Made by a program: the position numbers and the translations under genes. The notes under the pieces were generated by a model. It was not told where the DNA came from, did not search any database, and saw only the letters and a program-made list of their open reading frames with translations. Positions 1,513 to 17,193 of a stretch of DNA of 64,000 nt are shown piece by piece. How positions within the stretch are numbered: position 1 is the first letter of the stretch; each line of letters begins with the position of its first letter. Source of the DNA: Candidatus Omnitrophota bacterium (GTDB lineage: Bacteria > Omnitrophota > Gorgyraeia > Zapsychrales > JANLHA01); contig OY759724.1 in the NCBI GenBank assembly GCA_963662715.1, positions 3,044,982 to 3,108,981 of the forward strand, written 5' to 3'.

Positions 1513-1532
1513 CATAAGGAAGATTAAAAAAA

Positions 1533-2072: not shown

Positions 2073-2664
2073 AACACATGCTCCTTTTACGATTTTTGGA
2101 GCAATTACTGGTATTATTCTTATAGCGTTTTTTCAAAATCTTCCGGAACATATTTCATTTAATATTTTTTATGTGCTCCATCCTTTACATGTCGTTTTAA
2201 GTGCTCTTGTAACAGCTTCAATGTATGAATTCCATAAATGCGGCGGGCATAGTAAAAAATGTAATATTTGGACTCTCCTTGTTATTGGTTATATCGGCTC
2301 TGTAGGGATCGCGACGATAAGTGATTCTATTATTCCTTACATCGGAGAAATTATCCTCGGCATGCCAAACAGAGGTATTCATTTGGGTTTCATTGAAAAA
2401 TGGTGGTTAGTAAACCCTTTGGCCATAGCCGGAATAGCCATTGCTTATTTTAGACCTTCAACAAAGTTTCCGCATGCGGGGCATGTTTTATTAAGTACCT
2501 GGGCATCATTGTTTCATATGATTATGGCCATAGGACAGCCTTTAAATTGGGTAATGTATGTCGGTATTCTATTTTTTCTTTTTTTGGCTGTTTGGATTCC
2601 TTGTTGTGTGAGTGATATTGTATTTCCTCTTCTATTTATAAAAGAAAAACCAAAGGGGAGATAA
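2038..2664 (+). CDS. Polytopic integral membrane protein, function unknown
   Basis: Track ORF 2020..2664. The start is more likely the ATG at 2038, which has GAGGGA 7 nt upstream; about 6 predicted hydrophobic helices. Overlaps the end of the NUDIX gene. Confidence 0.5.
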   Translation: MEKFSQISKELKTHAPFTIFGAITGIILIAFFQNLPEHISFNIFYVLHPLHVVLSALVTASMYEFHKCGGHSKKCNIWTLLVIGYIGSVGIATISDSIIPYIGEIILGMPNRGIHLGFIEKWWLVNPLAIAGIAIAYFRPSTKFPHAGHVLLSTWASLFHMIMAIGQPLNWVMYVGILFFLFLAVWIPCCVSDIVFPLLFIKEKPKGR

Positions 2665-2666
2665 AA

Positions 2667-2975
2667 ATGCCAATTATGGAGATTAGCATTGTTCCAGTGG
2701 GAACTTCGACAGCTTCTGTTAGCCAATATGTGGCAAATACAGTAAAAGTATTAAAGAAACAAAAAGGCATCCGATATGAGTTGACATCGATGGGGACGAT
2801 AGTTGAATCAGATTCATTAGAGGTATTGTTGAATATCGCGAAAAAAATGCATGATAGCATTTTTAAGTCGAATATTAAAAGAGTGGTAACGACTATTAAG
2901 ATTGATGATAGAAAAGATAAAAAATTAACAATGAGCGGCAAAATAAATTCTGTGCAGAAAAAGGTTAAAGAATAA
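2667..2975 (+). CDS. MTH1187/YkoF-family small ligand (thiamine/HMP)-binding protein
   Basis: 102 aa; N-terminal EISIVPVGTSTASVSQYVA typical of the MTH1187/YkoF (DUF77) fold. Confidence 0.65.
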   Translation: MPIMEISIVPVGTSTASVSQYVANTVKVLKKQKGIRYELTSMGTIVESDSLEVLLNIAKKMHDSIFKSNIKRVVTTIKIDDRKDKKLTMSGKINSVQKKVKE

Positions 2976-2981
2976 AAATTC

Positions 2982-4556
2982 ATGGTCAATTTTACTGGAA
3001 AAAGATGCCGATTAAGAATTGTTGTTCCTGCATACCCTTCTTTGAATATCTATTCTCATATAGCGGATAAGACTACAGCTTTAGGCCCGGTATGTGTTGC
3101 CACTATGGTAAATAAATTGCCCCAATGGGATGTTGAAGTTATTGATGAAAATAATTTCCGCGGATACGGCCCCCGAAATCAACTCGGAGAAGTCGATCAC
3201 GAATCTTTACAAAAGACCAGGCCGGCGGACATTGTTGGTCTGTATGGCGGCTTGACCAGCACGATTCCCCGTCTGTATAACATAGCCCGCTTTTATAAAG
3301 ACAAGGGAGTTGTGACGATTGCAGGCGGGCAGCATTTTGTCGATGAGAATATTTTTGAAGCACTGTCAAACGGCATTGACTTTGTGGTTATCGGGGAGGG
3401 GGAAGAAACAATAAAAGAGCTTTTAATCGCTATACAAAATAAGAATGAAATTAATAACATTAAAGGCATCGCTTATCGGAACGGTAAAGATATTGTCAAA
3501 ACGACTCAGCGAAAACCATTGACTGATTTTGATAAATTACCTTTTCCGGATTTTTCTTTAGTGCGATATGCCAAAATCAAAATTTATCCTGTTGAACGGA
3601 TTCGCGGTTGCGGTATGAATTGCGAATTTTGCACTGTAAAAGGAAAACCTCGCTTTGCTTCTCCTGAACGGCTACTCGAACATATTAGTCATCTTGTTGA
3701 AACAAGTGATGCAAGGCATTTTTTTATCGTTGATGATCTTTTTGGCCAGCAAAGAAATGAAACAATAAGGTTTTGCAATATATTAAAGGATTATCAGGAA
3801 AAGATACATCGAAGGCTGGATATAAATGTTCAAATAAGATTAGATAAAGCCAAAGACCATGAATTGCTTTCGGCCATGCGCCAGGCAGGTATTAATATGG
3901 TGTCCATTGGGTTTGAATCGCCCATTAAAGAAGAATTAGAAGCAATGAATAAACATGTGACGCCGGAAGATATGATTCAATTTTCAAAGACATTTCATAA
4001 GTTTGGATTTTTAGTCCACGGCATGTTTATTTTTGGTTATCCATCGCGGGAAGGCGGAAACATTAATATATCGGCTGATGAAAGGGTGAAAATTTTTCGA
4101 AGGTTTATCAAAGAGGCAAAGATTGACACGATACAAATTTTACTTCCGGTACCTTTACCGGGGACGCAATTAAGAGAAAGGCTTAAAAAACAAGAAAGGA
4201 TTTATCCCCTTCAGGATGTCGGATGGGAATATTATGATGGTAATTTTCCATTATTTGAACCTGATAATCCAATGAGCGCTGAACAGATGCAGTCTTGTGT
4301 CAGAAAGATTATGGGAAAATTCTATCAATTTAAATATTTTTTTAAAATAGGTTTAAATATTTTTTCCTTCCCCGGCTTGATTTTCTTTCTGCACAATATT
4401 AAGAAGGGCTGGAGGAAATGGTATCGTCCTTGGCGTAACGACCTAATACGTTTTGGCGGGTGGATCATTGTGAAAGGATGGAATGCAAAATTTAAAAAAG
4501 ATCCTTTTTTAAGAAAATTACACAGCGCCAAATTGCATTTATTAAAAAGGCCTTAA
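2982..4556 (+). CDS. B12-binding-domain radical SAM enzyme (class B rSAM) with DUF4070-like C-terminal extension
   Basis: 524 aa; CxxxCxxC cluster motif GCGMNCEFC; N-terminal Rossmann-like region; long basic/aromatic C-terminal tail. Confidence 0.75.
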   Translation: MVNFTGKRCRLRIVVPAYPSLNIYSHIADKTTALGPVCVATMVNKLPQWDVEVIDENNFRGYGPRNQLGEVDHESLQKTRPADIVGLYGGLTSTIPRLYNIARFYKDKGVVTIAGGQHFVDENIFEALSNGIDFVVIGEGEETIKELLIAIQNKNEINNIKGIAYRNGKDIVKTTQRKPLTDFDKLPFPDFSLVRYAKIKIYPVERIRGCGMNCEFCTVKGKPRFASPERLLEHISHLVETSDARHFFIVDDLFGQQRNETIRFCNILKDYQEKIHRRLDINVQIRLDKAKDHELLSAMRQAGINMVSIGFESPIKEELEAMNKHVTPEDMIQFSKTFHKFGFLVHGMFIFGYPSREGGNINISADERVKIFRRFIKEAKIDTIQILLPVPLPGTQLRERLKKQERIYPLQDVGWEYYDGNFPLFEPDNPMSAEQMQSCVRKIMGKFYQFKYFFKIGLNIFSFPGLIFFLHNIKKGWRKWYRPWRNDLIRFGGWIIVKGWNAKFKKDPFLRKLHSAKLHLLKRP

Positions 4557-4604
4557 AAAGTAAACAAATGAATATTTTTCGAACAATCGAAAGGGGGCAT
4601 TTGA

Positions 4605-4922
4605 ATGGAAGTTATTTTGACTGATGAAAACTTCGAACAAGAAATAATTAAATCGGATTTGCCATGTTTGGTTGATTTTGGCGCCGATTGGTGTGCGCCT
4701 TGCCGCATGGTCGCACCAATAATGAAATCAATTGCAAAAGAGTATCAAGGAAAACTGAAGGTTGGCACAGTCAATGTGGATCAAGCACCTAAGACTGCTT
4801 CTAAATACGGTATTACAAGTATTCCCGCATTGTTTCTTTTTAAGAATGGCAAAATAGTCAACAAGGCCGTTGGTGCGGCTCCAAAAGAACAGGTGGTTTC
4901 TATGTTTAAAGAATACATATAA
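4605..4922 (+). CDS. trxA: Thioredoxin
   Basis: 105 aa, canonical WCAPC active site; GGAGG-like SD (aaggggg) upstream. Confidence 0.85.
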   Translation: MEVILTDENFEQEIIKSDLPCLVDFGADWCAPCRMVAPIMKSIAKEYQGKLKVGTVNVDQAPKTASKYGITSIPALFLFKNGKIVNKAVGAAPKEQVVSMFKEYI

Positions 4923-4950
4923 ATCAGGATTTAAAGAGGAGGTGTAATTT

Positions 4951-5154
4951 ATGCTTTTTTCATATGAATGCCAAAAGTGCGGACATACATTCGACCTTTT
5001 AATCGGTATGACCATGGAAAAACCGAAGATGGAATGTCCCAAGTGTCAGAGCAAAAATATCGTCAAGCTCATTTCGAAACCCAGCATAAAGATAAATAAA
5101 TCCGATTCGGGAGGCAGTTGTTCGACAGGGACTTGTCCGACCTGTATCCCTTAG
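4951..5154 (+). CDS. FmdB-family zinc-ribbon protein with extra Cys-rich tail
   Basis: 67 aa; CQKCG..x..CPKCQ paired CxxC typical of the FmdB family; C-terminal CSTGTCPTC. Confidence 0.6.
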   Translation: MLFSYECQKCGHTFDLLIGMTMEKPKMECPKCQSKNIVKLISKPSIKINKSDSGGSCSTGTCPTCIP

Positions 5155-5177
5155 TTTTATGAAGTGAGGAATATCTA

Positions 5178-5720
5178 GTGATTAACAGTATTGAATTATG
5201 CCTGAAACATAACGGAAGGGTGGACGGAAAAAAGAAGCTTTTATTTAAGCCGGGGCTTAATATTGTTATTGGCCCTAATGGCTCCGGGAAAAGTTCATTG
5301 TTAGAAGCTATCTATAACTGTCCGGATTGTATAAAACATAATAACGATAAAATGAGATATCATTATTTTAATAGTGAAACGATGAATCCGCATAGATCTG
5401 AAAAGCATTTTAAAGGAATCAGCGGATCGATTATTCGTGTGCGTGCCATGTTTTCATCTCACGGAGAAACAATGAGGGATGTTTTAAGATATATTAATTT
5501 TCACCCCGGCGATTGCCTGCTTCTTGATGAACCCGAATCAGGGCATGATTTAAAATGGATTTTAAAAATTCGCAAAGGGTTGGATGCAATTTGCAAGAAG
5601 GGAACACAGGTTATTATTGCAACACATCACCCGGTGTTTTGGAATGCGGACAATATTATTGAATTAAAAAAAAATTATCTTAAGAAAACATTAAACACAT
5701 TAAAGAAGAATCTTCCTTGA
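5178..5720 (+). CDS. Minimal ABC-type (AAA_21-like) ATPase
   Basis: 180 aa; Walker A GPNGSGKSS, Walker B LLLDEPESG, H-loop IIATHH; no transmembrane or substrate-binding partner domain. Confidence 0.6.
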   Translation: MINSIELCLKHNGRVDGKKKLLFKPGLNIVIGPNGSGKSSLLEAIYNCPDCIKHNNDKMRYHYFNSETMNPHRSEKHFKGISGSIIRVRAMFSSHGETMRDVLRYINFHPGDCLLLDEPESGHDLKWILKIRKGLDAICKKGTQVIIATHHPVFWNADNIIELKKNYLKKTLNTLKKNLP

Positions 5721-5738
5721 TTAAAAGAGTCAAATTTT

Positions 5739-6119
5739 ATGAAAAATAATGGGAACATAAATATTTCTCAAAATAAGGAAAAACAGAAGCATAATCATCG
5801 GCATTCAATAAAGGAAAGGCTTTTTTTGTTTTTTAAATGGTGGCTTGTTTTTACCGGCATTTATTCCGTCTCTTCTGTATGCCCTTTTTGCGGGAAGGTA
5901 GGCTGCCCCGTTGGTCTCGGAAGCGCTGGGGCCCTTGGAGCCTTTTTTGCTTTATTTATGCAAAATTGGAAACACCTGTTGCAAAAAATTCATTTTTTAA
6001 AAAAGGAAAAAACAGAGGTAACGAAAAAATTCGAAAAAGAAAAATTTTTCGCTAAGGGAGGAGGGGGATATGGAAAAGAAGGATTTGATAATAATCGGCG
6101 CGGGTCCGGCAGGTCTTAG
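5739..6119 (+). CDS. Hypothetical small membrane protein with CPxCG..GCP motif and Gly-zipper; Gly-rich tail
   Basis: 126-aa ORF; one hydrophobic helix, CPFCGKVGCPVGLGSAGALGAFFALF. The 3' 50 nt overlap the next gene in another frame, so the true end is uncertain. Confidence 0.35.
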   Translation: MKNNGNINISQNKEKQKHNHRHSIKERLFLFFKWWLVFTGIYSVSSVCPFCGKVGCPVGLGSAGALGAFFALFMQNWKHLLQKIHFLKKEKTEVTKKFEKEKFFAKGGGGYGKEGFDNNRRGSGRS

Positions 6120-6996
6120 TGCGGCAATTTGTGCGACGGATTTGGGCATTAAACCGCTAGTATTAGAAGAAAATATGCCCGGTGGTTTAGCCTCTGAGAT
6201 TCCTGTGTTGGAAAACTATCCGGGTTTTAGTGAAGGAATCAGCGGTAAAGATTTAATAGATAAATTGATTGAACAATGCAACAAAGCCTCGATAGAAATA
6301 CATCAATTTGAAAAAGTTTTTAATCTGAAATTTGAAGCAGACGTAAAAATTATTGAAACAGATAAAGCTCAATATAGAACCAATATTGTACTTATTGCTT
6401 CCGGAAGGCATCTCAGCATGCTTGGTGTTCCCGGTGAAAAAGAATTCAAGGGGAGAGGAGTAAGTTATTGCGCAGTATGCGACCGTGCTTTTTTTAAGGA
6501 TAGGAAAGTGTCCGTTATCGGAAAAGATGTTCATGCTGTTGAAGTTGCTTTATATTTAGCTGAATTGGCATCATTAGTGAATTTTATAAATTTAGGTAAT
6601 TGGCATAAGCCAAATGATATTTTCCTGAAAAAATTAGAAGGCCGAAATATAAATGTTCTTTCCGGGGTTGAAGTGAAGGAAATCAATGGAGACATTAAAG
6701 TAAAAACTGTGGTTTTATCGGATAAGGAAACAGGAGATATTCGCGAGATAGAAACAGACGGAGTGTTTTTACAGTTAGAAGAGGAGCCTAATAGTCAATT
6801 AGCAAAAAATGCCGGTATAAAGGTAAACGAAAAAGGGTATATCCTTGTTGATGAGAAAGGAAAAACTAATTTGGATGGTGTTTATGCCGCTGGTGACGTG
6901 ACGGATGGTTCGGTAAAAAAAGTAATAACATCTGCGGCCCAGGCATTTGTAGCTGTCAATGATATATTCGAGAAAAATCAAGGAAGGTTTCATTAA
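6070..6996 (+). CDS. Thioredoxin-reductase-like FAD/NAD(P)-dependent disulfide oxidoreductase
   Basis: 308 aa; GAGPAGLSAA FAD motif, redox CxxC (SYCAVCD), second Rossmann (VIGKDVHAVE), C-terminal GDV motif. Confidence 0.8.
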   Translation: MEKKDLIIIGAGPAGLSAAICATDLGIKPLVLEENMPGGLASEIPVLENYPGFSEGISGKDLIDKLIEQCNKASIEIHQFEKVFNLKFEADVKIIETDKAQYRTNIVLIASGRHLSMLGVPGEKEFKGRGVSYCAVCDRAFFKDRKVSVIGKDVHAVEVALYLAELASLVNFINLGNWHKPNDIFLKKLEGRNINVLSGVEVKEINGDIKVKTVVLSDKETGDIREIETDGVFLQLEEEPNSQLAKNAGIKVNEKGYILVDEKGKTNLDGVYAAGDVTDGSVKKVITSAAQAFVAVNDIFEKNQGRFH

Positions 6997-6998
6997 AT

Positions 6999-8771
6999 AT
7001 GCAGGAAAAGCGCATAGGTGTTTTTATTTGTCATTGCGGTAAGAATATTGCCGGAGGTGTGGATATAAAGGCTCTTGTCGAAAGCTCAAGAAGTCTTAAG
7101 GGAGTCGTCTTTGTTACAGAAAATAAATTTTCCTGTTCTGAAGAAGGTCAGGTTGCTGTTCAGGGTGCCATAAAGCACGAGCGTTTAGACAGAATTATTG
7201 TTGCTGCTTGTGATCCTGGGTTGCATCTACTGACTTTTCAAAGGTGCGGGCAGAAAGCGGGAATAGATTCTGCCTTCGTAGATTTAATTGATATTAGAAA
7301 ATGGACAATGCACAGTAGCCCTCATAAGGTTGATCCTCATCAAGCCTTAGAGAATTGCAAAAGACATATCGAACAAGCTGTAAAAAGGATGCGGTTAAAA
7401 CGCAAAATCCCCAGGGTTACTGTAAAAGTAAACTCTTCGGTTTTAGTTATCGGAGGAGGTGTCGCAGGATTAGAGGCCTCTTTAGATTTGGCGGATAAAG
7501 GATACAAAGTACATCTTGTTGAAAGGCTTGCGACCATCGGAGGCAAAATGGCCCTCCTTTATAAGGTCTTTCCTACAAATGATTGTGCGCCTTGTATATT
7601 AGCTCCCAAAACGGCGTACGCGAATGTGCATCCGAATATAAATTTGTTGACAAATGCGGAAGTTCAAAGCGTGGAAGGGTATATAGGAAATTACACCGTT
7701 ATCGTTAATCAAAAACCGCGTTACATTGACGAAAATAAATGTACTGGCTGTGGGTTATGTATAGAGAAGTGTCCCACAAAAATGGTTGATAACGAATTTT
7801 CCGCCGGAATTGGGGAACGCAAAGCCATCTATATTCCTTATGATCAGGCAATACCCAAAAAGGCAGTTATTGACAGTGCAAGTTGTCTGTATTTTAAAAA
7901 AGGGGCTTGCCGGTTATGCGAAAAAACCTGTCCGGCTCAGGCCGTAGATTTTGAACAACAGCCTAAGTCAATCAAGTTAAAAGTAGGCGCGATAATTGTT
8001 GCTACGGGTTTTGATGAATATAATCCTGTGTCGAAAACGGAGTATGGTTATGGACGTTACAAAAATGTTATCACCCAGTTTCAGCTAGCAAGATTTTTAG
8101 ATATAGACGGCCCTACGAAAGGAAAACTTTTAAGACCTTCAGACGGCAAAGAACCTAAAAATATTGTTATGATTCAATGTGTGGGCTCAAGGGATGAAAA
8201 TGCGAATAAATATTGTTCTGCTGTTTGTTGCATGTATGCCTTAAAGCACGCCCAGATAATAAAAGAGATGGTTTTGCCCAATACCGAAATTTATATTTGT
8301 TATATTGACATACGCACCGCAGGAAAAGATTTTGAGGAATATTATAAATATACAAGGGGATTGGGAATTAATTTTATTCGCGGAAGACCGGCTGAGATAG
8401 CAGAAAATGCCAAGACACGAAATCTTATTTTAAAAGTTGAAGATCCTGATATCAATGCCTTGATTAAAGTCGAAGCGGATTTAGTTGTGTTGTCCTGCGC
8501 GACTGTGCCTTCCAAAGGGACACAAAATCTTGCCGGGATACTAGGGATACATTTGGATGAAAATGGATTTTTTAAAGAAGTCCATCCTAAACTGCGTCCG
8601 GTAGAAACGAATGTCCGCGGCATTTATATTTGCGGTTCTGCACAGGGCCCCAAAGATATTCCGAATTCAATTGTCCAGGCAAAAGCGGTGGCTTCCTGCG
8701 CGGATGGCGAACTAAGAAAAGGAGAATTAGAACTTCCCGAAGCTATTGTAAAAGCAAATAAAGTCCCTTAA
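6999..8771 (+). CDS. HdrA-like flavin/FeS protein (heterodisulfide reductase subunit A family)
   Basis: 590 aa; MvhD-like Cys domain (GVFICHCGKNIAGG), FAD motif VIGGGVAGLEAS, two ferredoxin motifs (CTGCGLCIEKCP, CRLCEKTCP), and the HdrA-signature CxGxRDx6CSx2CC (CVGSRDENANKYCSAVCC). Confidence 0.85.
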   Translation: MQEKRIGVFICHCGKNIAGGVDIKALVESSRSLKGVVFVTENKFSCSEEGQVAVQGAIKHERLDRIIVAACDPGLHLLTFQRCGQKAGIDSAFVDLIDIRKWTMHSSPHKVDPHQALENCKRHIEQAVKRMRLKRKIPRVTVKVNSSVLVIGGGVAGLEASLDLADKGYKVHLVERLATIGGKMALLYKVFPTNDCAPCILAPKTAYANVHPNINLLTNAEVQSVEGYIGNYTVIVNQKPRYIDENKCTGCGLCIEKCPTKMVDNEFSAGIGERKAIYIPYDQAIPKKAVIDSASCLYFKKGACRLCEKTCPAQAVDFEQQPKSIKLKVGAIIVATGFDEYNPVSKTEYGYGRYKNVITQFQLARFLDIDGPTKGKLLRPSDGKEPKNIVMIQCVGSRDENANKYCSAVCCMYALKHAQIIKEMVLPNTEIYICYIDIRTAGKDFEEYYKYTRGLGINFIRGRPAEIAENAKTRNLILKVEDPDINALIKVEADLVVLSCATVPSKGTQNLAGILGIHLDENGFFKEVHPKLRPVETNVRGIYICGSAQGPKDIPNSIVQAKAVASCADGELRKGELELPEAIVKANKVP

Positions 8772-8805
8772 CTTTAATTATCGGTGATTTGAGAGGAGAT
8801 CCGAC

Positions 8806-9060
8806 ATGTTAAAACAAGAACAAGAAAAAATGGAAACAAAATGCAAGAAAATTATTGCGGAGCAGTTAGGAGTAAAATTCGAAGAATTAAAGCCAGATGC
8901 TTCTTTTGCTGATGATCTTGGTGCTGATTCTTTGGATTTGGTAGAACTTATTATGGCGTTAGAAGAAGAATTTAGTATTGAAATTCCTGATGAAGAAGCT
9001 GAAAAAATCAAAACAGTTGGCCAGGCAATAGAATATGTAAATAAAAGAATAGAGAAATAA
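8806..9060 (+). CDS. Acyl carrier protein (canonical AcpP-type, second copy in the window)
   Basis: 84 aa; DSLD phosphopantetheine-attachment motif ([18 protein letters not shown]); about 75% identical over the core to the fab-cluster AcpP at 40072; strong SD (GAGAGGAG) 7 nt upstream of the ATG at 8806. Confidence 0.85.
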
Positions 9061-9086
9061 ATATTTTAAAATCAGGAGGGACTGCC

Positions 9087-9356
9087 ATGGCAGAGGTTTA
9101 TGTGGAAGAATTTATGTCACCCGGATGTGTCGGTTGTCCGGTGGTAAAGGAAATGCTTAAAGTTTTATCAGAAGAAGTAACGGGCGAGGTAACGATAGAA
9201 GAAGTCGACATCACAGTTGATACGGCACGGGCATCTCAATACGGCGTCATGTCTGTTCCGGCTATAGCTATTAACGGTGAGCTTAAATTTATGGGCGTGC
9301 CTAAAAAAGAAGAATTAAAGCAGGCGCTCGTTGAAGGGCTTAAGGCAGATGAATAG
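9087..9356 (+). CDS. Small thioredoxin-fold (glutaredoxin-like) protein
   Basis: 89 aa; CVGCP active-site-like motif, thioredoxin-fold length; SD AGGAGG upstream. Confidence 0.7.
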   Translation: MAEVYVEEFMSPGCVGCPVVKEMLKVLSEEVTGEVTIEEVDITVDTARASQYGVMSVPAIAINGELKFMGVPKKEELKQALVEGLKADE

Positions 9357-9891
9357 TGAAGAAAAAAATAGTGATTTGGGAATAACGGTTTCCATATCGG
9401 AATGTGAGCCAAATTTTAAATTTGAGGTTTTATCTCATCCTGATGCCAGCGGATTAAATGCCTGCTTCAATTGCGGGACATGTACGGCAGGATGTCCTAT
9501 TCATGAAGTTTTTCCTGAATATAACCCCAGGAAACTGGCAAAGATGGTAAAGCTTGGTATGAAAAAACAGGTTTTAAGCAGCCCCTATATTTGGTATTGC
9601 GCTACCTGTCATAATTGCGAACAACGCTGCCCCCAAAATGTTAAATTTTTCAATATTTTGAATGTCTTGAAAAATTTGGCAGCCAGACAAGGTTATGCGC
9701 CGTCCTGCTGGATTCAACAGACCGAACAAATAGCAAAAACAGGCATAGTCTTTCCGACAGAAGATAGTTGGATCAAAAGAAGACAGGAAATGTCTCTCCC
9801 TTTTTTAAATCTAGATGGGGAAAAGGCAAAGAGAATAATTGAATCAAGCGGGATGAATGAAATTAAATCGAAGGTTAATTTGAATGAGTAA
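9349..9891 (+). CDS. HdrC-like 2x[4Fe-4S] ferredoxin subunit
   Basis: Track ORF starts at TTG 9331; ATG at 9349 overlaps the preceding stop (ATGAATAG). Motifs CFNCGTCTAGCP and CATCHNCEQRCP. Confidence 0.8.
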   Translation: MNSEEKNSDLGITVSISECEPNFKFEVLSHPDASGLNACFNCGTCTAGCPIHEVFPEYNPRKLAKMVKLGMKKQVLSSPYIWYCATCHNCEQRCPQNVKFFNILNVLKNLAARQGYAPSCWIQQTEQIAKTGIVFPTEDSWIKRRQEMSLPFLNLDGEKAKRIIESSGMNEIKSKVNLNE

Positions 9892-10759
9892 ATATGCTTT
9901 ATTTTTAGGTTGCACGACCCCAACTCAGGTACCGCAGTATGAGTTGTCCGCAAGATGGGTTTGTAAATATTTTGGCATTGAATTAATCGATATTAAAGAT
10001 TTTGTTTGCTGTGGTATTAATCAGGTTAATCTGGATATTGAGACAGGTTTTTCCTTGGCAGCTATGAATTTGGCTTTAGCGGAATCCGAAAAATTAGATG
10101 TTTTAACGCTTTGCGCCGCCTGCACCGGCGCCCTGGCTGAAACAATCGAAAAACTGAAGGACGAAGCAAGCAGAGATAAAGTAAACAAAAAATTAAAGAC
10201 GGTCGGATTAAAATATACAGGCCAATCTAAAGTAAAACATATATCGAGAGTTCTTTACGAAGATATCGGGTTAGAAACAATAAAAAAGGGAATAAAGAAA
10301 GATTTATCCGCACTGCATGTGGCACCTCATTACGGCTGCCATTATTTAAAACCAAAATCTGCTTTTGGTGATTTTGAAAAACCCGATAATCCCAAAAGGC
10401 TTCACCATCTCATTTCGGCTGCCGGGGCCCATCCTATTGAATATGAGACGCTTGGTTTATGCTGCGGGGGCAAAACTTTTCCTGTTACTAAAAATCTGGC
10501 TCATTCATTGGTACAAAAAAAGTTTGATAATTTGATGGATAAAGAAGCGGATGCGATGGTTCTTCAATGTCAGACTTGTTATCTTATGTATAGCGGCCAA
10601 CAAAAAGAGATAAATGAAAATTATGGCAAACGATATGATTTTCCGGTAATTCTGTATCCCCAGCTTCTCGGATTGGCTCTGGGCGCGGAGCCCAAGAAAG
10701 ATTTAGGCCTTGATTTAAACGAAATTTCAGTAAATCGAATTTTGGATAAGATATTATAA
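9884..10759 (+). CDS. HdrB-like protein with two CCG domains
   Basis: 291 aa; two cysteine-rich CCG signatures (FVCCGINQ and GLCCGGKTF .. QCQTCY); start overlaps the HdrC-like stop. Confidence 0.85.
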   Translation: MSKYALFLGCTTPTQVPQYELSARWVCKYFGIELIDIKDFVCCGINQVNLDIETGFSLAAMNLALAESEKLDVLTLCAACTGALAETIEKLKDEASRDKVNKKLKTVGLKYTGQSKVKHISRVLYEDIGLETIKKGIKKDLSALHVAPHYGCHYLKPKSAFGDFEKPDNPKRLHHLISAAGAHPIEYETLGLCCGGKTFPVTKNLAHSLVQKKFDNLMDKEADAMVLQCQTCYLMYSGQQKEINENYGKRYDFPVILYPQLLGLALGAEPKKDLGLDLNEISVNRILDKIL

Positions 10760-10788
10760 ATAAGCGGTAATTGTGACGGAGATAGTGC

Positions 10789-11475
10789 ATGAGCATAAAA
10801 GAAAATTATTTGAAAATTAGAAAAAAAATTCCGGATTATGTCCAGATAGTTTTAGCTGCCAAGATGAAGACTTCTGAAGAAATCAAAGAGGCTATTGATG
10901 CCGAAGCAACAATAATAGGTGAAAATTACGTACAGGAAGCTGAAAAAATATATGAGGCGTTAGGAGAAAAGGCTAAAAAAATTAAATGGCATATGATCGG
11001 TCCTTTGCAGAAAAATAAGATTAACAAGGCAGTAAAAATTTTTGATTGTATTCAGACGGTTGATTCTATTGAACTCGCTGATGCTATACATAAAAGAGCT
11101 GAGGTAATAAAAAAAGAAATGTCTGTTTTTATAGAGGTAAATATCGGCAACGAAATGACAAAGGCAGGCGTTAAACCGGAATACGGAGTGGTTGAAAAAT
11201 TAGCGCTACATATCGCAGGATTATTTTATTTAAAATTGGAAGGACTTATGACAATCGGCCCTAGAGTCGGCAACCCGGAAGACATCCGTCCATATTTCAA
11301 AGCAGTAAAAGAAATTTTTGATAAATTGCAGAGCGCGGGTATACCCAATACAGATTTAAAATATTTGTCCATGGGGATGTCCAATTCATACAAAATAGCC
11401 ATTGAGGAGGGAGCGAATATTATAAGGTTAGGAACTATTATTTTCGGAGCGCGCAAATGTGATTTAAGAAACTAA
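10789..11475 (+). CDS. yggS: YggS-family PLP homeostasis protein
   Basis: 228 aa; single alanine-racemase-N-like TIM barrel, typical YggS length and conserved K region (VQIVLAAK); C-terminal IIRLGTIIFGAR. Confidence 0.85.
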   Translation: MSIKENYLKIRKKIPDYVQIVLAAKMKTSEEIKEAIDAEATIIGENYVQEAEKIYEALGEKAKKIKWHMIGPLQKNKINKAVKIFDCIQTVDSIELADAIHKRAEVIKKEMSVFIEVNIGNEMTKAGVKPEYGVVEKLALHIAGLFYLKLEGLMTIGPRVGNPEDIRPYFKAVKEIFDKLQSAGIPNTDLKYLSMGMSNSYKIAIEEGANIIRLGTIIFGARKCDLRN

Positions 11476-11513
11476 GGGCATGAGATAAACACGGGTAGTG
11501 ATGGGGCAAAATT

Positions 11514-12143
11514 ATGAAAATAAAACCATTTGAAGAACATGTGGATCAATATGAAGATTGGTTTGAGAAAAATTATTGGGTCTATCAGTCAGAACTTCAG
11601 GCAGTAAAAGAATTGTTGCCTAAGCAAGGAAACGGCATTGAAATTGGTGTAGGAAGCGGTCGTTTTGCAGATCCCTTGGGAATACGTTTAGGTGTTGAGC
11701 CTTCGCCTAAAATGAGAGCACTGGCAAAAGCTCGAGGGATAGAAGTTATTGATGGAGTAGCCGAAGATATCCTTTTTAAAAATCCTCGATTTGATTTCGT
11801 GCTGATGGTCACAACGATCTGTTTTCTGGATGATATAGAAAAAGCATTTAAAAAAATCCATAGGATTCTAAACCCAAGCGGGCATTTGGTCATAGGATTT
11901 ATCGATAAAAACAGCCCTGTTGGAAAGATTTACCAGAAACACAAAAACGAAAGCGAGTTCTATAAAGTTGCAACTTTCTATTCTGTAGATAAAGTTGTGT
12001 CTTATTTAAAAAATGCCGGATTTAGCAACTTTGTATTTAAGCAGACTATTTTCAAAAATTTAAAAGAAATTAAAGACATTGAACCTATTCAGGATGGTTT
12101 TGGTGCGGGTTCTTTTGTCGTCATTAGAGCTTTAAAGGAATGA
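11514..12143 (+). CDS. Class I SAM-dependent methyltransferase
   Basis: 209 aa; motif I GIEIGVGSGRFA and post-I acidic residue. Confidence 0.75.
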   Translation: MKIKPFEEHVDQYEDWFEKNYWVYQSELQAVKELLPKQGNGIEIGVGSGRFADPLGIRLGVEPSPKMRALAKARGIEVIDGVAEDILFKNPRFDFVLMVTTICFLDDIEKAFKKIHRILNPSGHLVIGFIDKNSPVGKIYQKHKNESEFYKVATFYSVDKVVSYLKNAGFSNFVFKQTIFKNLKEIKDIEPIQDGFGAGSFVVIRALKE

Positions 12144-12147
12144 AGGT

Positions 12148-12507
12148 ATGAAAGTCGCAGTCATTGGAGCATCAAATAAACCGCATCGGTATTCTTATCA
12201 GGCTGTGGTTCTTTTAAAAGAAACAGGACACAAAGTTTATCCCATTCATCGAAAAATAAAAGAGATTGACGGGATTCCAGTTGTTCCAACCATTGAAGAG
12301 GTTAATGACTTAATTGATACGGTTACATTGTATATAAATGCTGTTTTTTCTAATGCTATCGGCAAAGATATTATTGCTAAAAAGCCCAAAAGAATAATTT
12401 TTAATCCCGGAGCTGAGAATCTGGAATTAGCAAATGAGGCGAGAGAGCAGGGTATAGATACAATTAATGCCTGCACATTAGTTATGCTAAAAACAGGTCA
12501 GTTTTAA
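12148..12507 (+). CDS. CoA-binding domain protein
   Basis: 119 aa; KVAVIGASNKPHRYSY N-terminus typical of the CoA_binding_2 family. Confidence 0.75.
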   Translation: MKVAVIGASNKPHRYSYQAVVLLKETGHKVYPIHRKIKEIDGIPVVPTIEEVNDLIDTVTLYINAVFSNAIGKDIIAKKPKRIIFNPGAENLELANEAREQGIDTINACTLVMLKTGQF

Positions 12508-12519
12508 GGAGGGAGTAAA

Positions 12520-12684
12520 ATGTCCATAATGAAAATTATTATAGGAATTTTAATCGGAGCATTGCTGGGGAGTGTGATGGGATATTTCGGTAAATGCTCA
12601 AGCGGTGTTTGCCCTTTGACAAGTACACCGCTAAGAGGGGCTCTTTGGGGAGCTTTCTTGGGATTAATGTTTGGATTAACTTAA
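12520..12684 (+). CDS. Small (54 aa) membrane protein with CxxxxC motif and glycine zipper
   Basis: Not in the ORF track (under 60 aa). ATG at 12520 preceded by AGGAGGGAG; MSIMKIIIGILIGALLGSVMGYFGKCSSGVCPL..GALWGAFLGLMFGLT*. Resembles the Cys/Gly segment of the 5739 ORF. Confidence 0.45.
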   Translation: MSIMKIIIGILIGALLGSVMGYFGKCSSGVCPLTSTPLRGALWGAFLGLMFGLT

Positions 12685-12704
12685 TGTAAAACGAGGAGGA
12701 GAGG

Positions 12705-13043
12705 ATGCTGGAAACAAATTTGAAACATTTAGAAACAAAAGATGAGGTAGAAGAATTATTAAAAAATAATGAAAAAGTCATGATTTGCTGTGGCCGAATG
12801 GGGCCGATGTGTATTCCTGTTTATGGGATTATGGAAAAATTAGAATCGCAATATTCACAGATTCAGTTCAGGGATATGGATTTTGATATCCCTGTTGCCT
12901 CTTTTATTAAAGATTTGCCCGAATGTGCTTCGTTTACGGGATTGCCTTTTACGGTCTATTTTAAGAACGGATCGATCGTTAAGGCGACAACCAGCATTCA
13001 GAATGAAAAGCAAATAGTTGATATTTTAGAAAAAATTTTTTAG
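12705..13043 (+). CDS. Thioredoxin-like protein with atypical active site
   Basis: 112 aa; thioredoxin-fold length, Cys pair in CCGRMGPMC at the usual CxxC position; SD GAGGAGGAGAGG upstream. Confidence 0.6.
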   Translation: MLETNLKHLETKDEVEELLKNNEKVMICCGRMGPMCIPVYGIMEKLESQYSQIQFRDMDFDIPVASFIKDLPECASFTGLPFTVYFKNGSIVKATTSIQNEKQIVDILEKIF

Positions 13044-13045
13044 AA

Positions 13046-13543
13046 ATGAGCATGAATGAATCCTTTCATAAATGTTCAAAGTGTGGGAATAATTTGCCGG
13101 AAATAAATATTTTCGTTATTGACGACGAATATATTTGTATTCATTGTTTATATGGTAAGGCCGAACCTTTCCCGATTTATCCTATAGGTATCGTGCAAAA
13201 TGATCTAAGGCGTAACAGAAAAAATTTTGGTACGGTTGGCAAAGGCGGCCTATCATGTATTAAGCTGTTCCCATCACAAAAGCCATTTCTGTATAAAATT
13301 GAAGAAGAAAGGTTTTTGACGATTGTTTATTATCTTCATCAAGCAAAGCAGATTAAATCAGTCTTTAAAAGAGGATTGGACGGGAAGGAAGTCGGTGTTT
13401 TCTCTTCCCGTACGCCGGATAGGCTTTCACGCATTGCTATTCAAAATGTTAATCTGGTGAAAGTTGAAGGGACTAATCTTTACGTTGAGGGATTAGATGC
13501 TATCAATGGCAGTCCGGTTTTAGACATAAAACTTAAAATATAG
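13046..13543 (+). CDS. TsaA/YaeB-like (UPF0066) domain protein with N-terminal zinc ribbon
   Basis: 165 aa; CSKCG..CIHC ribbon, then GVFSSRTPDR..GLDAINGSPVLDIKLKI matching the TsaA-like beta-barrel signature. Confidence 0.7.
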   Translation: MSMNESFHKCSKCGNNLPEINIFVIDDEYICIHCLYGKAEPFPIYPIGIVQNDLRRNRKNFGTVGKGGLSCIKLFPSQKPFLYKIEEERFLTIVYYLHQAKQIKSVFKRGLDGKEVGVFSSRTPDRLSRIAIQNVNLVKVEGTNLYVEGLDAINGSPVLDIKLKI

Positions 13544-13562
13544 TGATCAAAAAGGGTGAATT

Positions 13563-14135
13563 ATGAAAATATCTATAATTTTTCACAGTGTATGCGCAAA
13601 TAATTATTTGATGGCTAAGGCTTTTTATGAAAATTTAAAAATCAAAAAACAAGATGTTTCATTGTTTAGAGTTGCTGATCCCGATTGGGCAGAACAAGAA
13701 AGTGTTCCTCTCGTGGCAAAAAAAAATTTGAGAAATATGATGGCTCTTCCCATGGCTACTCCAGAAGCCATGTTTGAAAGCGATCTTATTATAATGGGTT
13801 CGCCGACGTATTTTGGAAATGTATCGGCCGAAATGAAAATTTACATGGACTCCATTGCTAAATATTGGATAAAAGCAGAATTAGCAGGGAAAAGGCTTGC
13901 TGCTTTTACCTCAACAGGCAATCCCCAAGGCGGCGGAGACTTGTGTCTTCAGGTTATTCACACATTTGGAATGTATATGGGAATGCTTTGCGTACCTGTT
14001 CCAACGACTTTAATTTCAGGTGCAGATATCCATCCCTTTGGCATCATGCATTATTCCTATTCGAAGTACGGCGAAAAATTAGATAAAAAAACACAAACAG
14101 TAATAGAAAATTTTTCTGAGTATTTAATACAATAA
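13563..14135 (+). CDS. Flavodoxin-like fold NAD(P)H-dependent FMN reductase family protein
   Basis: 190 aa; MKISIIFHS.. N-terminus, MGSPTYFGNVSAEMK flavin-binding loop. Confidence 0.75.
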   Translation: MKISIIFHSVCANNYLMAKAFYENLKIKKQDVSLFRVADPDWAEQESVPLVAKKNLRNMMALPMATPEAMFESDLIIMGSPTYFGNVSAEMKIYMDSIAKYWIKAELAGKRLAAFTSTGNPQGGGDLCLQVIHTFGMYMGMLCVPVPTTLISGADIHPFGIMHYSYSKYGEKLDKKTQTVIENFSEYLIQ

Positions 14136-14270
14136 ATCAAAGGTTGATGATATTATTATTTTAAAATTTTTTGATTATAAAAAATGGGGGGTTGAGGGTA
14201 ATCTCACCATTTCGCTTAAGAAAAATAATAAATAAAAAAATTAGCCTGCGGCGCTTATAGCAAGATAAAA

Positions 14271-14355
14271 GGTGTTTAACATGGCGCCGTTTTATGTGTG
14301 ATTTTGGGGTGATTTGTTAAACATCTAGGAGGTGGTGTTTAACACGTGTTAAACA
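14271..14355. repeat. Iteron-like set of four TGTTTAACA / TGTTAAACA 9-mers, including a perfect 20-bp palindrome TGTTTAACACGTGTTAAACA
   Basis: 9-mers at 14273-14281, 14315-14323, 14336-14344 and 14347-14355; the last two form a perfect palindrome around a central CG (14336-14355). The first copy is bracketed by the inverted GC hexamers CGGCGC (14249-14254) and GCGCCG (14284-14289). Confidence 0.6.
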
Positions 14356-14544
14356 TTAAGAGAAGCAAGAAATTTTAAAAAACTCGTCGTTGTGCTCTTG
14401 ACATCTGATGGGCTATATGGCACACTTGCACTCTATCCGCATTAATAATTACTCTTCGTTGAATCTCAATCCAAAGATGTGGTTTTACTAGAAAATAATC
14501 AAGCATCTAGGTTGTAACATATATAAAATTTAAAGGATTTAAAA

Positions 14545-14586
14545 GGCCATCCCAGATATCTGGCTTATAGGGGTGGTCTTTTTTCT
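14545..14586 (+). terminator. Bidirectional terminator-like hairpin containing a perfect 12-bp palindrome CCAGATATCTGG
   Basis: GGCCATCCC..GGGGTGGTC outer stem (two G-U pairs) around the inner palindrome 14552-14563, followed by CTTTTTTCTT; the opposite strand also has a T-rich tail. Confidence 0.4.
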
Positions 14587-14728
14587 TGGCCACTTGCTTT
14601 AAATTACGCAAAATGCCAGCCAAGAAAAATTTTTTTAAAAAAGTATGGCATATTTTTGCAAACAAATGACATATATATGTAGGAGCAAGTTGTACGATAG
14701 ATCTTTATTTACTTGAAAAGAGGTTGTT

Positions 14729-14926
14729 ATGCATAGCAACGAAATGAACGCATTATTTGAAATATACAATGAAGCAAAGAACCGGATTTTGTTATATGTT
14801 GAAGCTTCTGTGCATCCCGAGCAATTTAAAGCGCTACGCAAGCTTATTCTTGATGAACTTGGCAGAAGCGGGGCTGAAGGTAAGGTGCGGAATTTATTGA
14901 GTGAAAAGGACAGGGCAGGCAAGTAA
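14729..14926 (+). CDS. Hypothetical protein (65 aa), first gene of the recombinase module
   Basis: AAGAGG SD 8 nt upstream of the ATG; no recognisable domain. Confidence 0.4.
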   Translation: MHSNEMNALFEIYNEAKNRILLYVEASVHPEQFKALRKLILDELGRSGAEGKVRNLLSEKDRAGK

Positions 14927-14957
14927 TGAATAAAGCGAAGGGGGTGGTGTAAAATGA

Positions 14958-15335
14958 ATGAAAAAGAATGAATTTTATAAAATTCAGGCGGAAGCGTTCT
15001 GGGATTATGAAAAGAGGTTTTCGTATAGGAATTTCAATAAACATAACATCAAAGACCCGGTGAAATTCCTACACGGTAACAAGTCCGAGCTAGAGCGAGG
15101 TAACTTTAAAGATTACGACAGAATAAAACTGTTCAATCAATGGGCAACATCAAAAGACATTACAGGCGCAGACCGTCAGGAAATATGGAAAATAGTGAGA
15201 ACTACAAAAAAGCAGGATTATGTTATCACGGAAGGAAGTGAAGAGTTTATCAGGCTTTCAGAAGTTATCAGCATTTTGCATAATGAGAACATGAAGCAGT
15301 TAGGTGATATGCTATCCAAGAAAAAATGTGGTTGA
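14958..15335 (+). CDS. Hypothetical protein (125 aa)
   Basis: ORF with AGGGGGTGGTG SD-like sequence upstream; no recognisable domain. Confidence 0.45.
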   Translation: MKKNEFYKIQAEAFWDYEKRFSYRNFNKHNIKDPVKFLHGNKSELERGNFKDYDRIKLFNQWATSKDITGADRQEIWKIVRTTKKQDYVITEGSEEFIRLSEVISILHNENMKQLGDMLSKKKCG

Positions 15336-15367
15336 CAATAACTGTAAAGCAACGTAAAGTATTTCTT

Positions 15368-15553
15368 ATGAAAATATACACGGTTACAAAAACTGCGGAA
15401 AAACTAGGAATATCACGCCAGTCGCTCCATCAATGGATTAAAAAAGGATGGGTAAAACCTAAATACGATTACAGGAATTATCCTGTATTTACTGCTGACG
15501 ATATTAAAAAAATTCAGCAATGGATGGGAACACTAAAAGAATCATGCGAGTAG
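15368..15553 (+). CDS. Small helix-turn-helix DNA-binding protein (excisionase/MerR-like; candidate recombination directionality factor)
   Basis: Track ORF 15326..15553; likely start ATG 15368 (MKIYTVTKTAEKLGISRQSLHQWIKKGWVKP..). HTH_17-like; sits immediately 5' of the recombinase, which overlaps its end. Confidence 0.6.
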   Translation: MKIYTVTKTAEKLGISRQSLHQWIKKGWVKPKYDYRNYPVFTADDIKKIQQWMGTLKESCE

Positions 15554-17193
15554 CCATTTACACAAGAGTATCAACAGAAGACCAAGCCCGTGAGGGGACT
15601 TCTTTGGAGGTTCAGCGGGAGTTTCTTGAGAATTACGCAAAGCATCAGGGGTGGTCTATATATTATCCGGAAAAAGGTCGGATTTACGAAGATGACGGTT
15701 ATTCTGGAAATCTAAGCAGACGACCTGCTTTGAATAAACTTCTTAGCCACGCAAACCAGAAAAAATTTGATATTGTACTTGTCTATAAAATCGACCGTTT
15801 CGCAAGAAACAACAGGCTTCTGCTTAATCTTGTCGAAGACCTCGACCAAAGGGGAATAGGTTTTAAATCAGCTACGGAGTCATTTGATACCGTTACTGCC
15901 GCCGGCAAAATGGCGCTGTCAATGCTTGGAACGGTAGCGCAGTTTGAGCGGGACAGGATTATTGAACGGGTATTTCCGGGGATGATAAAAGGCGTGGAGC
16001 GAGGGAACTGGCAGGGTGCAAGATATTCGCCCTATGGATATTTTTATAATAAACAAAAGAAGCTTCTTGAAGTGGTGCCGGAGGAAGCAAATGTTGTAAA
16101 AATGATTTATACAATGTATCTGTCAGGGCAAAGCACGCCGCAAATAGCAGGGTATCTTTACGATAAAAAATATAAAACCAGAAGCGGCGGGAAATTTCAT
16201 ACAAAACTGGTCGCAGATATTTTAAAAAATCAGTTATATATCGGCAATCTTGTATGGAACAAGCATCATTACGATAAGACGAAAAAGACCCTCAAAGGCA
16301 ATCGCTATGTTAAAAACGATCCGGAAAAAGTTGTAATCTCTAAAGGAAAACATATACCGATAATTGACCGGGAAGATTTTGAAGCCGTACAGCAAAAGCT
16401 TGAAAAAAGCAGAAAAGGCATGGGAAACAGAAAGGGATGTAAAGAATATCCTTTGACAGGTATCATCAAATGCGCTAAATGCGGGCATAATTTCCATGGC
16501 TCACTTCTGACAGCATCAAGGGAAAATAAAAAAACGAAACTGAAAAGAAGATATTACAGATGTTCCGGCAGAGCAACGCACAATGTTAGATGTGATAATG
16601 TTTTTGTGAAAGCAGTTGAGGTAGAGAAAGAAGTTTACAGAATCTTGGAAACAATACGGCTGGAAGATATAAATGAGGCGTTACGGACTTCAGCATCATC
16701 AAATAATATAACGGAAGCAAACGAAGAAGTGATCGACAAGATCCATGAATTGAAGATGGATTTAGCGAAGAATTTAAAAAAGCAAGAAAGGCTCGGGAAA
16801 ATCTTTACTGAAGGGCTGATTGCAATGGAAGCCTACAAGCCCCAGGTCATTCCCCTCAGAGATGAAGAGAAGGAAATAAAAGGTAAAATCAAAAAGCTTG
16901 AGCTGAACTTAATTGAAAGAGAACGTTCAGAAGAATACAAAAAATTAGTAACAGCCGTTATTGAACACATTGACGCAGTCAGGAATATGGACATCGCAGG
17001 CAAGAAAGGACTGCTGAAAATAGTGTTTAAAAACATAATAATTGAAAATGGAAAGATAACAGATTTCGAGCTGTATCAACCGTTTAAAAAGCTATACGAA
17101 GGAGCAGCGATAAAGTGCCAAATGCAGGAAATAAAAGAACTTATGACAATTCCGGAGTGCGTGTGTACATGCGTACTTACGGATGCCAGATGA
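15544..17193 (+). CDS. Large serine recombinase (resolvase/invertase catalytic domain + recombinase domain + zinc ribbon + coiled coil)
   Basis: N-terminus MRVAIYTRVSTEDQ with catalytic Ser, ..VYKIDRFARN.. motif, and a zinc ribbon CAKCGH..CSGRATHNVRC. About 550 aa; the track ORF begins 24 nt earlier at 15520. The last 79 nt overlap miaB. Confidence 0.9.
   Translation: MRVAIYTRVSTEDQAREGTSLEVQREFLENYAKHQGWSIYYPEKGRIYEDDGYSGNLSRRPALNKLLSHANQKKFDIVLVYKIDRFARNNRLLLNLVEDLDQRGIGFKSATESFDTVTAAGKMALSMLGTVAQFERDRIIERVFPGMIKGVERGNWQGARYSPYGYFYNKQKKLLEVVPEEANVVKMIYTMYLSGQSTPQIAGYLYDKKYKTRSGGKFHTKLVADILKNQLYIGNLVWNKHHYDKTKKTLKGNRYVKNDPEKVVISKGKHIPIIDREDFEAVQQKLEKSRKGMGNRKGCKEYPLTGIIKCAKCGHNFHGSLLTASRENKKTKLKRRYYRCSGRATHNVRCDNVFVKAVEVEKEVYRILETIRLEDINEALRTSASSNNITEANEEVIDKIHELKMDLAKNLKKQERLGKIFTEGLIAMEAYKPQVIPLRDEEKEIKGKIKKLELNLIERERSEEYKKLVTAVIEHIDAVRNMDIAGKKGLLKIVFKNIIIENGKITDFELYQPFKKLYEGAAIKCQMQEIKELMTIPECVCTCVLTDAR

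Follow-up and report, generated by a model that had tools for sequence, protein, structure and literature searches.

Homologues of the soluble heterodisulfide reductase (Hdr) HdrABC are annotated in very many genomes of anaerobes, where they are invoked as agents of "electron bifurcation" without a known substrate; to our knowledge, what serves as the substrate of such homologues in organisms without the coenzymes M (CoM) and B (CoB) is a long-standing open question. Among the closest described systems are the methanogen HdrABC-MvhAGD complex, the sHdr-LbpA system of sulfur oxidisers and the HdrA2B2C2 enzyme of Methanosarcina, which is F420H2-dependent and has no separate donor module. In HdrA, electrons from MvhD reach the flavin by way of the C-terminal ferredoxin domain, and the inserted one delivers electrons to ferredoxin (PMC9012536). 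Here we describe an Hdr-like locus of a Candidatus Omnitrophota bacterium, located at positions 4605-14135 of a 64-kb stretch of contig OY759724.1 (hereafter the window). Coordinates are positions in the window, and identities are to window proteins unless stated otherwise. The conserved entity in this locus is a module of five genes, and not the 17-gene cluster in which they lie. We propose, with a rough probability of 0.6, that the five genes encode a self-contained cytoplasmic redox module, a soluble HdrABC variant in which the hydrogenase (Mvh) input is replaced by thiol/disulfide partners, and that an acyl carrier protein (ACP) encoded among them stands outside the conserved mechanism. 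The five core genes and the ACP gene are the following:

6070-6996, + strand: thioredoxin reductase (TrxR)-like flavoprotein, core (Pfam Pyr_redox_2, 5.6e-44; TIGR01292, 278.6, cutoff 343.45)
6999-8771, + strand: HdrA of the methanogen type, 590 aa, core (NCBIfam HdrA2 NF040770, 696.5 bits, cutoff 1100)
8806-9060, + strand: AcpP-type ACP, 84 aa, clade-specific insert (TIGR00517, 112.9, cutoff 70.45; NF002149, 120.8, cutoff 106)
9087-9356, + strand: small thioredoxin of the MJ0307/MTH807 type, 89 aa, core (TIGR00411, 4.3e-21)
9349-9891, + strand: HdrC, core (TIGR03290, 106.2, cutoff 160; two 4Cys [4Fe-4S] motifs)
9884-10759, + strand: HdrB, core (Pfam CCG, two stretches, 2.3e-20; TIGR03288, 240.6, cutoff 345.15)

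Related loci were gathered with HdrA as the query from one genome per species, from JGI metagenomes and by exact-protein look-ups. The resulting census comprised 93 distinct loci, with HdrA proteins 65-95% identical to the window HdrA, and each locus was searched with 18 window proteins. For the linkage counts only loci with enough flanking DNA on the relevant side were considered. The TrxR-like gene lay 5′ of hdrA in 43/43 loci and the small thioredoxin gene directly 3′ of it in 74 of 75, and all five genes (TrxR-like, HdrA, thioredoxin, HdrC and HdrB) were present in 27 of the 30 loci that had both flanks, while the genes outside the five were unrelated between groups of loci. The arrangement, with a core that comes back in 93 distinct loci, goes far beyond what chance would produce. 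The core is spread over bacterial candidate phyla and Bathyarchaeia, about 90 uncultured anaerobes altogether. The same five genes also occur in a permuted order, trxB>hdrC>hdrB>hdrA>trx, in contigs labelled as Bathyarchaeia; the permuted-order loci (L017, L019, L130 and L135-L146) include these and similar metagenome contigs. The HdrA proteins of these loci are 68-72% identical to bacterial HdrA, and such a high identity across domains suggests that the whole module was transferred between bacteria and archaea. The original prediction, which was made from the sequence of the window and described the region as a co-directional redox cluster, had proposed to look for conserved thioredoxin genes near hdrA homologues. 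Such genes are indeed conserved, and what it overlooked is that the TrxR-like protein and the small thioredoxin are the invariant partners.

The TrxR-like protein retains the flavin adenine dinucleotide (FAD) motif GAGPAG and the redox motif CAVC, the latter invariant in 67/67 proteins. Its NADPH motifs are lost: in the alignment to the thioredoxin reductase 5uth, GGGDSA has become GKDVHA and HRRDxxR has become NLGNWHK. These motifs are degenerate in every TrxR-like protein from loci with the bacterial gene order, while every protein from loci with the archaeal (permuted) order keeps GGGNSA and HRRxxLR. The TIGR01292 score of the window protein falls under the equivalog cutoff for NADPH-dependent TrxRs. 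Among PDB structures it matches the NADPH-TrxR 5uth with 183 bits, the ferredoxin-dependent flavin thioredoxin reductase (FFTR, 6gna) with 121.8 bits and DDOR with 121 bits. As the protein is nearer to ordinary TrxRs, and as its archaeal-order cousins still have the site, an independent loss of the NADPH site is suggested. Having lost NADPH binding, the bacterial proteins need another electron source, and the retention of the site in archaea versus its loss in bacteria provides a natural experiment.

The small thioredoxin carries the active site SPGCVGCP; its CxxC is invariant in 79/79 proteins, and the whole site is invariant in the form SPGCxxCP. Its closest PDB structures are the methanogen thioredoxins MTH807 and MJ0307 (1nho, 8e-18, and 1fo5, 7e-16). 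A homologue of trxA, the first gene of the cluster, was found at most 9 kb from hdrA in 12 of the 14 loci of the bacterial group with 68-75% HdrA identity. The original prediction counted four thioredoxin-fold proteins in the cluster; we could verify three, the third of them weakly. This third protein, encoded at 12705-13043, has its best PDB thioredoxin match at E = 0.003, with GPMC in place of CxxC and a CC pair upstream. Homologues of it, 69-74% identical, lie downstream of hdrB in at least 14 Omnitrophota-like loci, so that in this group it is a sixth frequently linked gene; they sit 1-1.5 kb past hdrB (e.g., L005 6818-7153 and L094 9533-9868). In some Aminicenantes-like loci a thioredoxin-domain protein of 349 aa is encoded directly after hdrB (L009 13519-14568, L124 9519-10568), and in this group it adds one more thiol-redox protein to those linked with the module.

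The TrxR-like protein and the thioredoxins might constitute the ordinary thioredoxin system of the cell, situated beside an unrelated HdrABC with no functional coupling between them. Genes of thioredoxin systems are common and often clustered, and the archaeal-order TrxR-like proteins, with their NADPH motifs, could work alone. Yet the linkage (43/43 and 74/75) holds in bacteria as well as in archaea and survives the rearrangement of the gene order, and the bacterial TrxR-like proteins, having lost NADPH binding, need electrons from elsewhere. In addition, the input domain that HdrA usually has is gone, and the neighbourhood offers no other conserved donor module. We therefore regard a mere neighbourhood of two unrelated systems as improbable, and return to the proposed thiol/disulfide-linked HdrABC module, in which HdrA, HdrC and HdrB form the catalytic part.

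HdrA comprises an N-terminal iron-sulfur (FeS) domain, an FAD domain with the motif CxGxRDx6CSx2CC, and an inserted ferredoxin domain. The presence of this motif, which reads CVGSRDENANKYCSAVCC in the window protein, and of two CCG domains in HdrB had been pointed out in the original prediction, and both were found. The cluster cysteines of HdrA, including those of the N-terminal cluster, are invariant in 81 relatives, as is the CxxC that contains the equivalent of Cys197. Residues 1-583 of HdrA align to PDB 9sfi_A (1e-176) and 5odc_A (4.9e-173), and none align beyond them: the alignment stops at the start of the C-terminal ferredoxin domain (methanogen HdrA proteins have 654-659 aa). Likewise, the protein matches positions 1-568 of the 777 positions of the HdrA2 model, and against a second NCBIfam equivalog model it scored 595.6 with a cutoff of 1400. 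Because HdrA lacks the C-terminal ferredoxin domain, the usual Mvh input route is missing, which fits the absence of mvh genes: none were found in the window, nor next to the module in the eight relatives that were inspected. The window contains no flx genes either, so that the earlier description of a complete Hdr-like set without mvh or flx partners in the window holds.

The open reading frame (ORF) of HdrC opens at a TTG at 9331, and its probable start is the ATG at 9349, giving an overlap of 8 nt with the thioredoxin gene; in L080, the closest relative, HdrC was called with 180 aa. Its eight cluster cysteines are invariant in 61/61 proteins. In HdrB ten cysteines are invariant in 66/66 (C10, C42, C43, C77, C80, C152, C193, C194, C229 and C232), and the protein matches PDB 9sfi_C (1.5e-57) and 5odc_B (1.8e-56). 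HdrB and HdrC are both nearest to their methanogen counterparts. By these sequence features the HdrA/HdrC/HdrB set is predicted to be complete, cofactor-competent and of the methanogen type, and it is found in a bacterium, one of the Omnitrophota judging by its FabF, whose named neighbours all belong to that phylum.

Since all three subunits are closest to methanogen enzymes, one may ask whether the locus encodes a genuine CoM-S-S-CoB heterodisulfide reductase that was acquired from methanogens. We give this explanation almost no weight. HdrA, HdrB and HdrC all score below the NCBIfam equivalog cutoffs, the host belongs to Omnitrophota, the window contains no genes of methanogenesis or of CoM or CoB, and both the Mvh genes and HdrA's C-terminal ferredoxin domain are missing.

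The ACP gene is located between hdrA and the small thioredoxin gene. It was the feature emphasized in the original prediction, which described it as a full AcpP with a DSLD site placed between hdrA and hdrCB. The gene is genuine and its product passes the AcpP equivalog cutoffs; the serine of DSLD is present in the window ACP, and the site was found in all four intact orthologues. The ATG at 8806 is preceded by a ribosome-binding site (RBS), GAGAGGAGA, and the gaps to the flanking genes are 26-34 nt. The ACPs embedded in hdr loci form a group of their own, with 83-100% identity and 83-84 aa, and they share a conserved N-terminal extension, MLxQEEKVxME, which the ACPs of fatty-acid biosynthesis (fab) clusters do not have; the extension of the window ACP comprises eight residues. 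In a collection of 5.8 billion proteins the next-best ACPs were at most 77% identical. The dN/dS values of the intact ACP genes are 0.08-0.22, versus 0.04-0.13 for the adjoining thioredoxin gene, and by this measure the intact copies are under purifying selection.

The window also contains a housekeeping ACP gene, which lies outside the redox cluster:

40078-40305, + strand: housekeeping AcpP, between FabG (39301-40041) and FabF (40350-41657) (Pfam)

The possibility that the hdr-embedded ACP is the only ACP of the genome was rejected on account of this copy. The two ACPs are 68% identical at the protein level (tblastn), lower than the approximately 75% reported in the original prediction; an identity of 74.7% is obtained for their DNA, over 170 nt only. 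A recent duplication of the resident fab ACP is unlikely, considering that the hdr ACP is 68% identical to it and 74-77% identical to fab ACPs of foreign Omnitrophota. The hdr ACP lies outside any fab or lipid cluster, and no phosphopantetheinyl transferase gene was found in the redox cluster.

The distribution of the ACP gene differs from that of the five core genes. An ACP gene is present between hdrA and the thioredoxin gene in 6/6 loci whose HdrA is at least 86% identical to that of the window, and in 0/69 loci below this value, in which no ACP-like sequence was detected anywhere in the locus. In ACP-less loci hdrA and the thioredoxin gene are separated by 20-110 nt. The Hdr, thioredoxin and TrxR-like proteins of the 69 ACP-less clusters are 50-85% identical to those of the window and have kept all catalytic residues. 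In a neighbour-joining tree of HdrA the ACP-bearing loci are monophyletic and nested among ACP-less Omnitrophota-like loci, and since the six form one clade, a single gain is the simplest history. The neighbourhood comparison suggested in the original prediction thus has a double outcome: the ACP is conserved within the immediate clade, where its placement is not a local accident, while the wider family of related clusters never contains it. A decayed ACP was found in one member of the clade, L150. At positions 7770-8050 of that locus the start codon is missing, there is an in-frame stop, and DSLD has become DFLD (Ser to Phe). In comparison with the DNA of L081, where the ACP is intact, the remnant has 82% nucleotide identity over 189 nt, versus 94.6% for hdrA and 93.3% for the thioredoxin gene; the flanking hdr and thioredoxin genes of L150 are intact. 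As one lineage let it decay, the ACP is dispensable. Taken together, these comparisons make it highly probable that the five genes are the core and that the ACP is a late, non-core insertion. The ACP is predicted to be a functional, clade-specific AcpP paralogue and not a general Hdr substrate. Most likely it is an acyl carrier that was captured into a well-expressed operon.

The original prediction went further and proposed that the phosphopantetheine thiol of the ACP, together with the CoA-binding protein and the thioredoxins of the cluster, might be the carrier-bound thiol/disulfide substrate of the Hdr-like complex, in parallel to the lipoate on LbpA. Several of the above observations are compatible with such a role: the ACP is intact, has its DSLD site and its own RBS, and is co-directional with its neighbours across short gaps; five lineages have retained it at this junction under purifying selection; and the genome has it as a dedicated second copy next to the fab ACP. 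This proposal could not be sustained, however, and we judge it very improbable. The ACP is absent from 69/69 related clusters with intact catalytic residues, and in L150 it is a pseudogene that has lost the serine next to intact hdr genes. The CoA-binding gene occurs in two genomes only, and by profile score the ACP is a canonical AcpP with no redox-specific feature. By analogy one might also think of the holo-ACP as a redox partner within the clade only, forming through its phosphopantetheine a mixed disulfide with the small thioredoxin or with a low-molecular-weight thiol, which HdrB or the TrxR-like protein would turn over. If true, this would be a carrier-protein-dependent Hdr analogous to the dependence of sHdr on LbpA; we consider it improbable.

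A clade-specific accessory role for the ACP is possible, and a precedent exists in the mitochondrial ACP, which has such a role in complex I and in LYR-protein complexes. By this analogy the ACP might belong to the Hdr-like complex as an accessory or structural subunit, or might regulate it, instead of being its substrate. Its insertion inside the operon between two core subunits, the N-terminal extension that sets it apart from fab ACPs, and the purifying selection would all agree with this. On the other hand, we identified no partner that carries an ACP-binding (LYR-like) motif, compensating changes are not obvious in the core proteins of the ACP-bearing clade, and the ACP has decayed in L150. 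On balance we regard an accessory function as unlikely. Whatever its role, the ACP insertion illustrates neatly how a second AcpP within a redox operon was gained once, maintained and lost once, and it cautions against reading function from a single gene neighbourhood.

Under the proposed reading of a five-gene thiol/disulfide-linked module, the dedicated small thioredoxin is a better substrate candidate than the ACP, and the following scheme may be drawn. The two non-cubane clusters of HdrB would work on the small thioredoxin's disulfide instead of on CoM-S-S-CoB, and HdrA's flavin would couple this reaction to ferredoxin via the inserted ferredoxin domain. The TrxR-like flavoprotein would constitute a third, mid-potential arm. 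In the archaeal version NADPH would feed this arm, whereas in the bacterial version its only electron exchange would be with a thioredoxin (a TrxA is often encoded adjacently) and with HdrA. The whole module would then serve strict anaerobes as a ferredoxin-linked, possibly bifurcating thioredoxin/protein-disulfide reductase. A single insertion in the ancestor of a narrow Omnitrophota clade would have put the ACP gene between hdrA and the thioredoxin gene, where it would be expressed with an RBS of its own in addition to the usual fab ACP. We hold this specific mechanism only tentatively, somewhat short of an even chance. That the module represents an HdrABC not described before, coupled to thioredoxin, linked to ferredoxin and possibly electron-bifurcating, with a protein disulfide replacing CoM-S-S-CoB, is more tentative still, perhaps one chance in three. 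Even so, the fixed partners and the lack of any other conserved donor lead to a concrete hypothesis that could be tested cheaply: the substrate of Hdr would be a protein disulfide, and the thioredoxin system would be connected to ferredoxin.

Several points weigh against this reading. That the TrxR-like protein and the thioredoxin associate physically with HdrABC is suggested by synteny only. The TrxR-like protein itself has no FeS cluster, and a transfer of electrons from its flavin to a cluster of HdrA is postulated on the model of ferredoxin-dependent TrxR-like enzymes. Neither the direction of the electron flow nor bifurcation can be decided from sequence. In four of the five ACP lineages the ACP is intact, conserved and predicted to be co-transcribed, which argues that there it is not mere baggage. 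Finally, a prior account is possible, although in the open-access literature we found no description of a TrxR-like/HdrABC/thioredoxin module or of an association of Hdr with an ACP.

The remaining genes of the cluster are the following:

4605-4922, + strand: trxA, active site WCAPC (TIGR01068, 114.7 bits, cutoff 96.8)
4951-5154, + strand: FmdB-type zinc ribbon protein (Pfam)
5178-5720, + strand: P-loop/ABC-like ATPase, 180 aa (Pfam)
5739-6119, + strand: Cys/Gly-rich ORF, 126 aa, no family match, coding status uncertain
10789-11475, + strand: YggS-like protein (Pfam)
11514-12143, + strand: S-adenosylmethionine (SAM) methyltransferase (Pfam)
12148-12507, + strand: CoA_binding_2 protein (Pfam)
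12520-12684, + strand: DUF6132 protein (Pfam)
12705-13043, + strand: atypical thioredoxin-like protein, 112 aa, no Pfam or NCBIfam match, weak PDB thioredoxin match
13046-13543, + strand: TrmO/TsaA-like protein with an N-terminal Cys4 ribbon (Pfam)
13563-14135, + strand: FMN_red, flavin mononucleotide (FMN) reductase (Pfam)

The + strand of 4605-14135 holds an unbroken series of ORFs, with no competing ORFs on the - strand. Every gene listed in the original prediction was confirmed by the ORF listing, Pfam and NCBIfam, in the order and on the strand given there. Its description of many overlaps of 4-8 nt was too generous, as overlaps occur at two junctions only (thioredoxin/hdrC and hdrC/hdrB, 8 nt each) and the remaining junctions are gaps of 2-48 nt. 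The Cys/Gly-rich ORF, whose product has a predicted hydrophobic segment, extends 50 nt into the start of the TrxR-like gene. A scan of 2500-15600 for promoters and terminators was uninformative, yielding fewer hits than expected from shuffled sequences, and Rfam and tRNA scans of the whole window gave no matches.

The flanking genes differ in how far they accompany the core. Of the related loci, only the closest ones (L080, L085 and L150) have the FmdB, ATPase and Cys/Gly-rich ORFs (4951-6119). The ORF at 5739-6119 is not called as a gene in L080, yet it is 82% conserved there, and it is partly conserved in L150 (61%). The CoA-binding gene is confined to the window and L080, while the YggS-like protein, the SAM methyltransferase, DUF6132, the TrmO/TsaA-like protein and the FMN reductase are neighbours at the level of the lineage. 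L080, which lies on a 592-kb contig and has an HdrA that is 95% identical, is colinear with the window over 967-14136 at 86-92% DNA identity (blastn), and the colinearity ends at 14136. The GC content is 35-39% over the first 17 kb, which include the redox cluster, versus 42-50% over 17-64 kb, where housekeeping genes reside (MiaB, NadA, SufBDS, IspG, FabG-ACP-FabF, Asd, ArgD, ArgH, LysA and PanC). In L080 the GC content jumps at the same place, just past the FMN reductase gene, between positions 1-17000 and 17000-21773 of that locus. These data suggest that the redox cluster belongs to a block that was acquired or is compositionally distinct. A chimeric assembly was considered as a source of the change from 37% to 47% GC near 17 kb and rejected, as HdrA, ACP, SufB and FabF share one contig of 3,360,633 bp and L080 has the same jump. 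The contigs of more distant relatives of the cluster have a uniform GC content of 33-40%.

Between the FMN reductase gene and a MiaB-like gene the window carries a specific insert, 14136-17193. It begins with a non-coding stretch of 822 nt, which is followed by three ORFs:

14958-15335: ORF of 125 aa, no family
15326-15553: MerR/excisionase-like helix-turn-helix protein, 75 aa
15520-17193: large serine recombinase, 557 aa

This insert is probably a small integrative element or a remnant of one; at the corresponding place L080 encodes a PASTA-domain protein. Further downstream, the only minus-strand gene thereabouts (18518-19219, - strand) encodes a PEP-CTERM protein with a CBM96 carbohydrate-binding module, which implies an exosortase system in this Omnitrophota genome.

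We compared the locus with the described systems to which it is closest. The methanogen HdrABC-MvhAGD complex (PDB 5ODC, 9SFI and 8RVU) has the same HdrA domains, the two [4Fe-4S] motifs of HdrC and the two CCG domains of HdrB. It differs from the module in its MvhAGD genes and in the C-terminal ferredoxin domain of HdrA, neither of which the module has; the hosts of the module are bacterial or Bathyarchaeial, with no methanogenesis context, and its partners are the TrxR-like protein and the small thioredoxin. Methanosarcina HdrA2B2C2 provides the best NCBIfam match of HdrA and is likewise an HdrABC that functions without Mvh. However, HdrA2 has a fused C-terminal MvhD/polyferredoxin part that the window HdrA lacks, and there is no F420 context here. 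The sHdr-LbpA system of sulfur oxidisers is an Hdr-like complex of non-methanogens with a thiol cofactor bound to a carrier protein. sHdrA is minimal (about 350 aa, with FAD and one cluster), whereas the window HdrA has 590 aa with extra FeS domains, and the sHdrA structure 6tjr matches residues 330-568 only, with 140 bits versus about 590 for methanogen HdrA. In the sHdr system, moreover, the B and C subunits are duplicated and a lipoate-binding protein is obligatory; the window has a single hdrC and a single hdrB, and Pfam revealed no lipoyl or GcvH-type domain among 18 cluster ORFs. By these comparisons the cluster is not an sHdr system. FFTR (PDB 6GNA) and DDOR (PDB 5J60) have the same low-Mr TrxR fold with FAD and CxxC and also lack the NADPH motifs; unlike them, the window TrxR-like protein is tied genetically to HdrABC and is nearer in sequence to NADPH-TrxRs. 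As for the AcpP of fatty-acid synthesis, the hdr ACP passes its equivalog models and carries DSLD, and it differs in its location and in its N-terminal extension.

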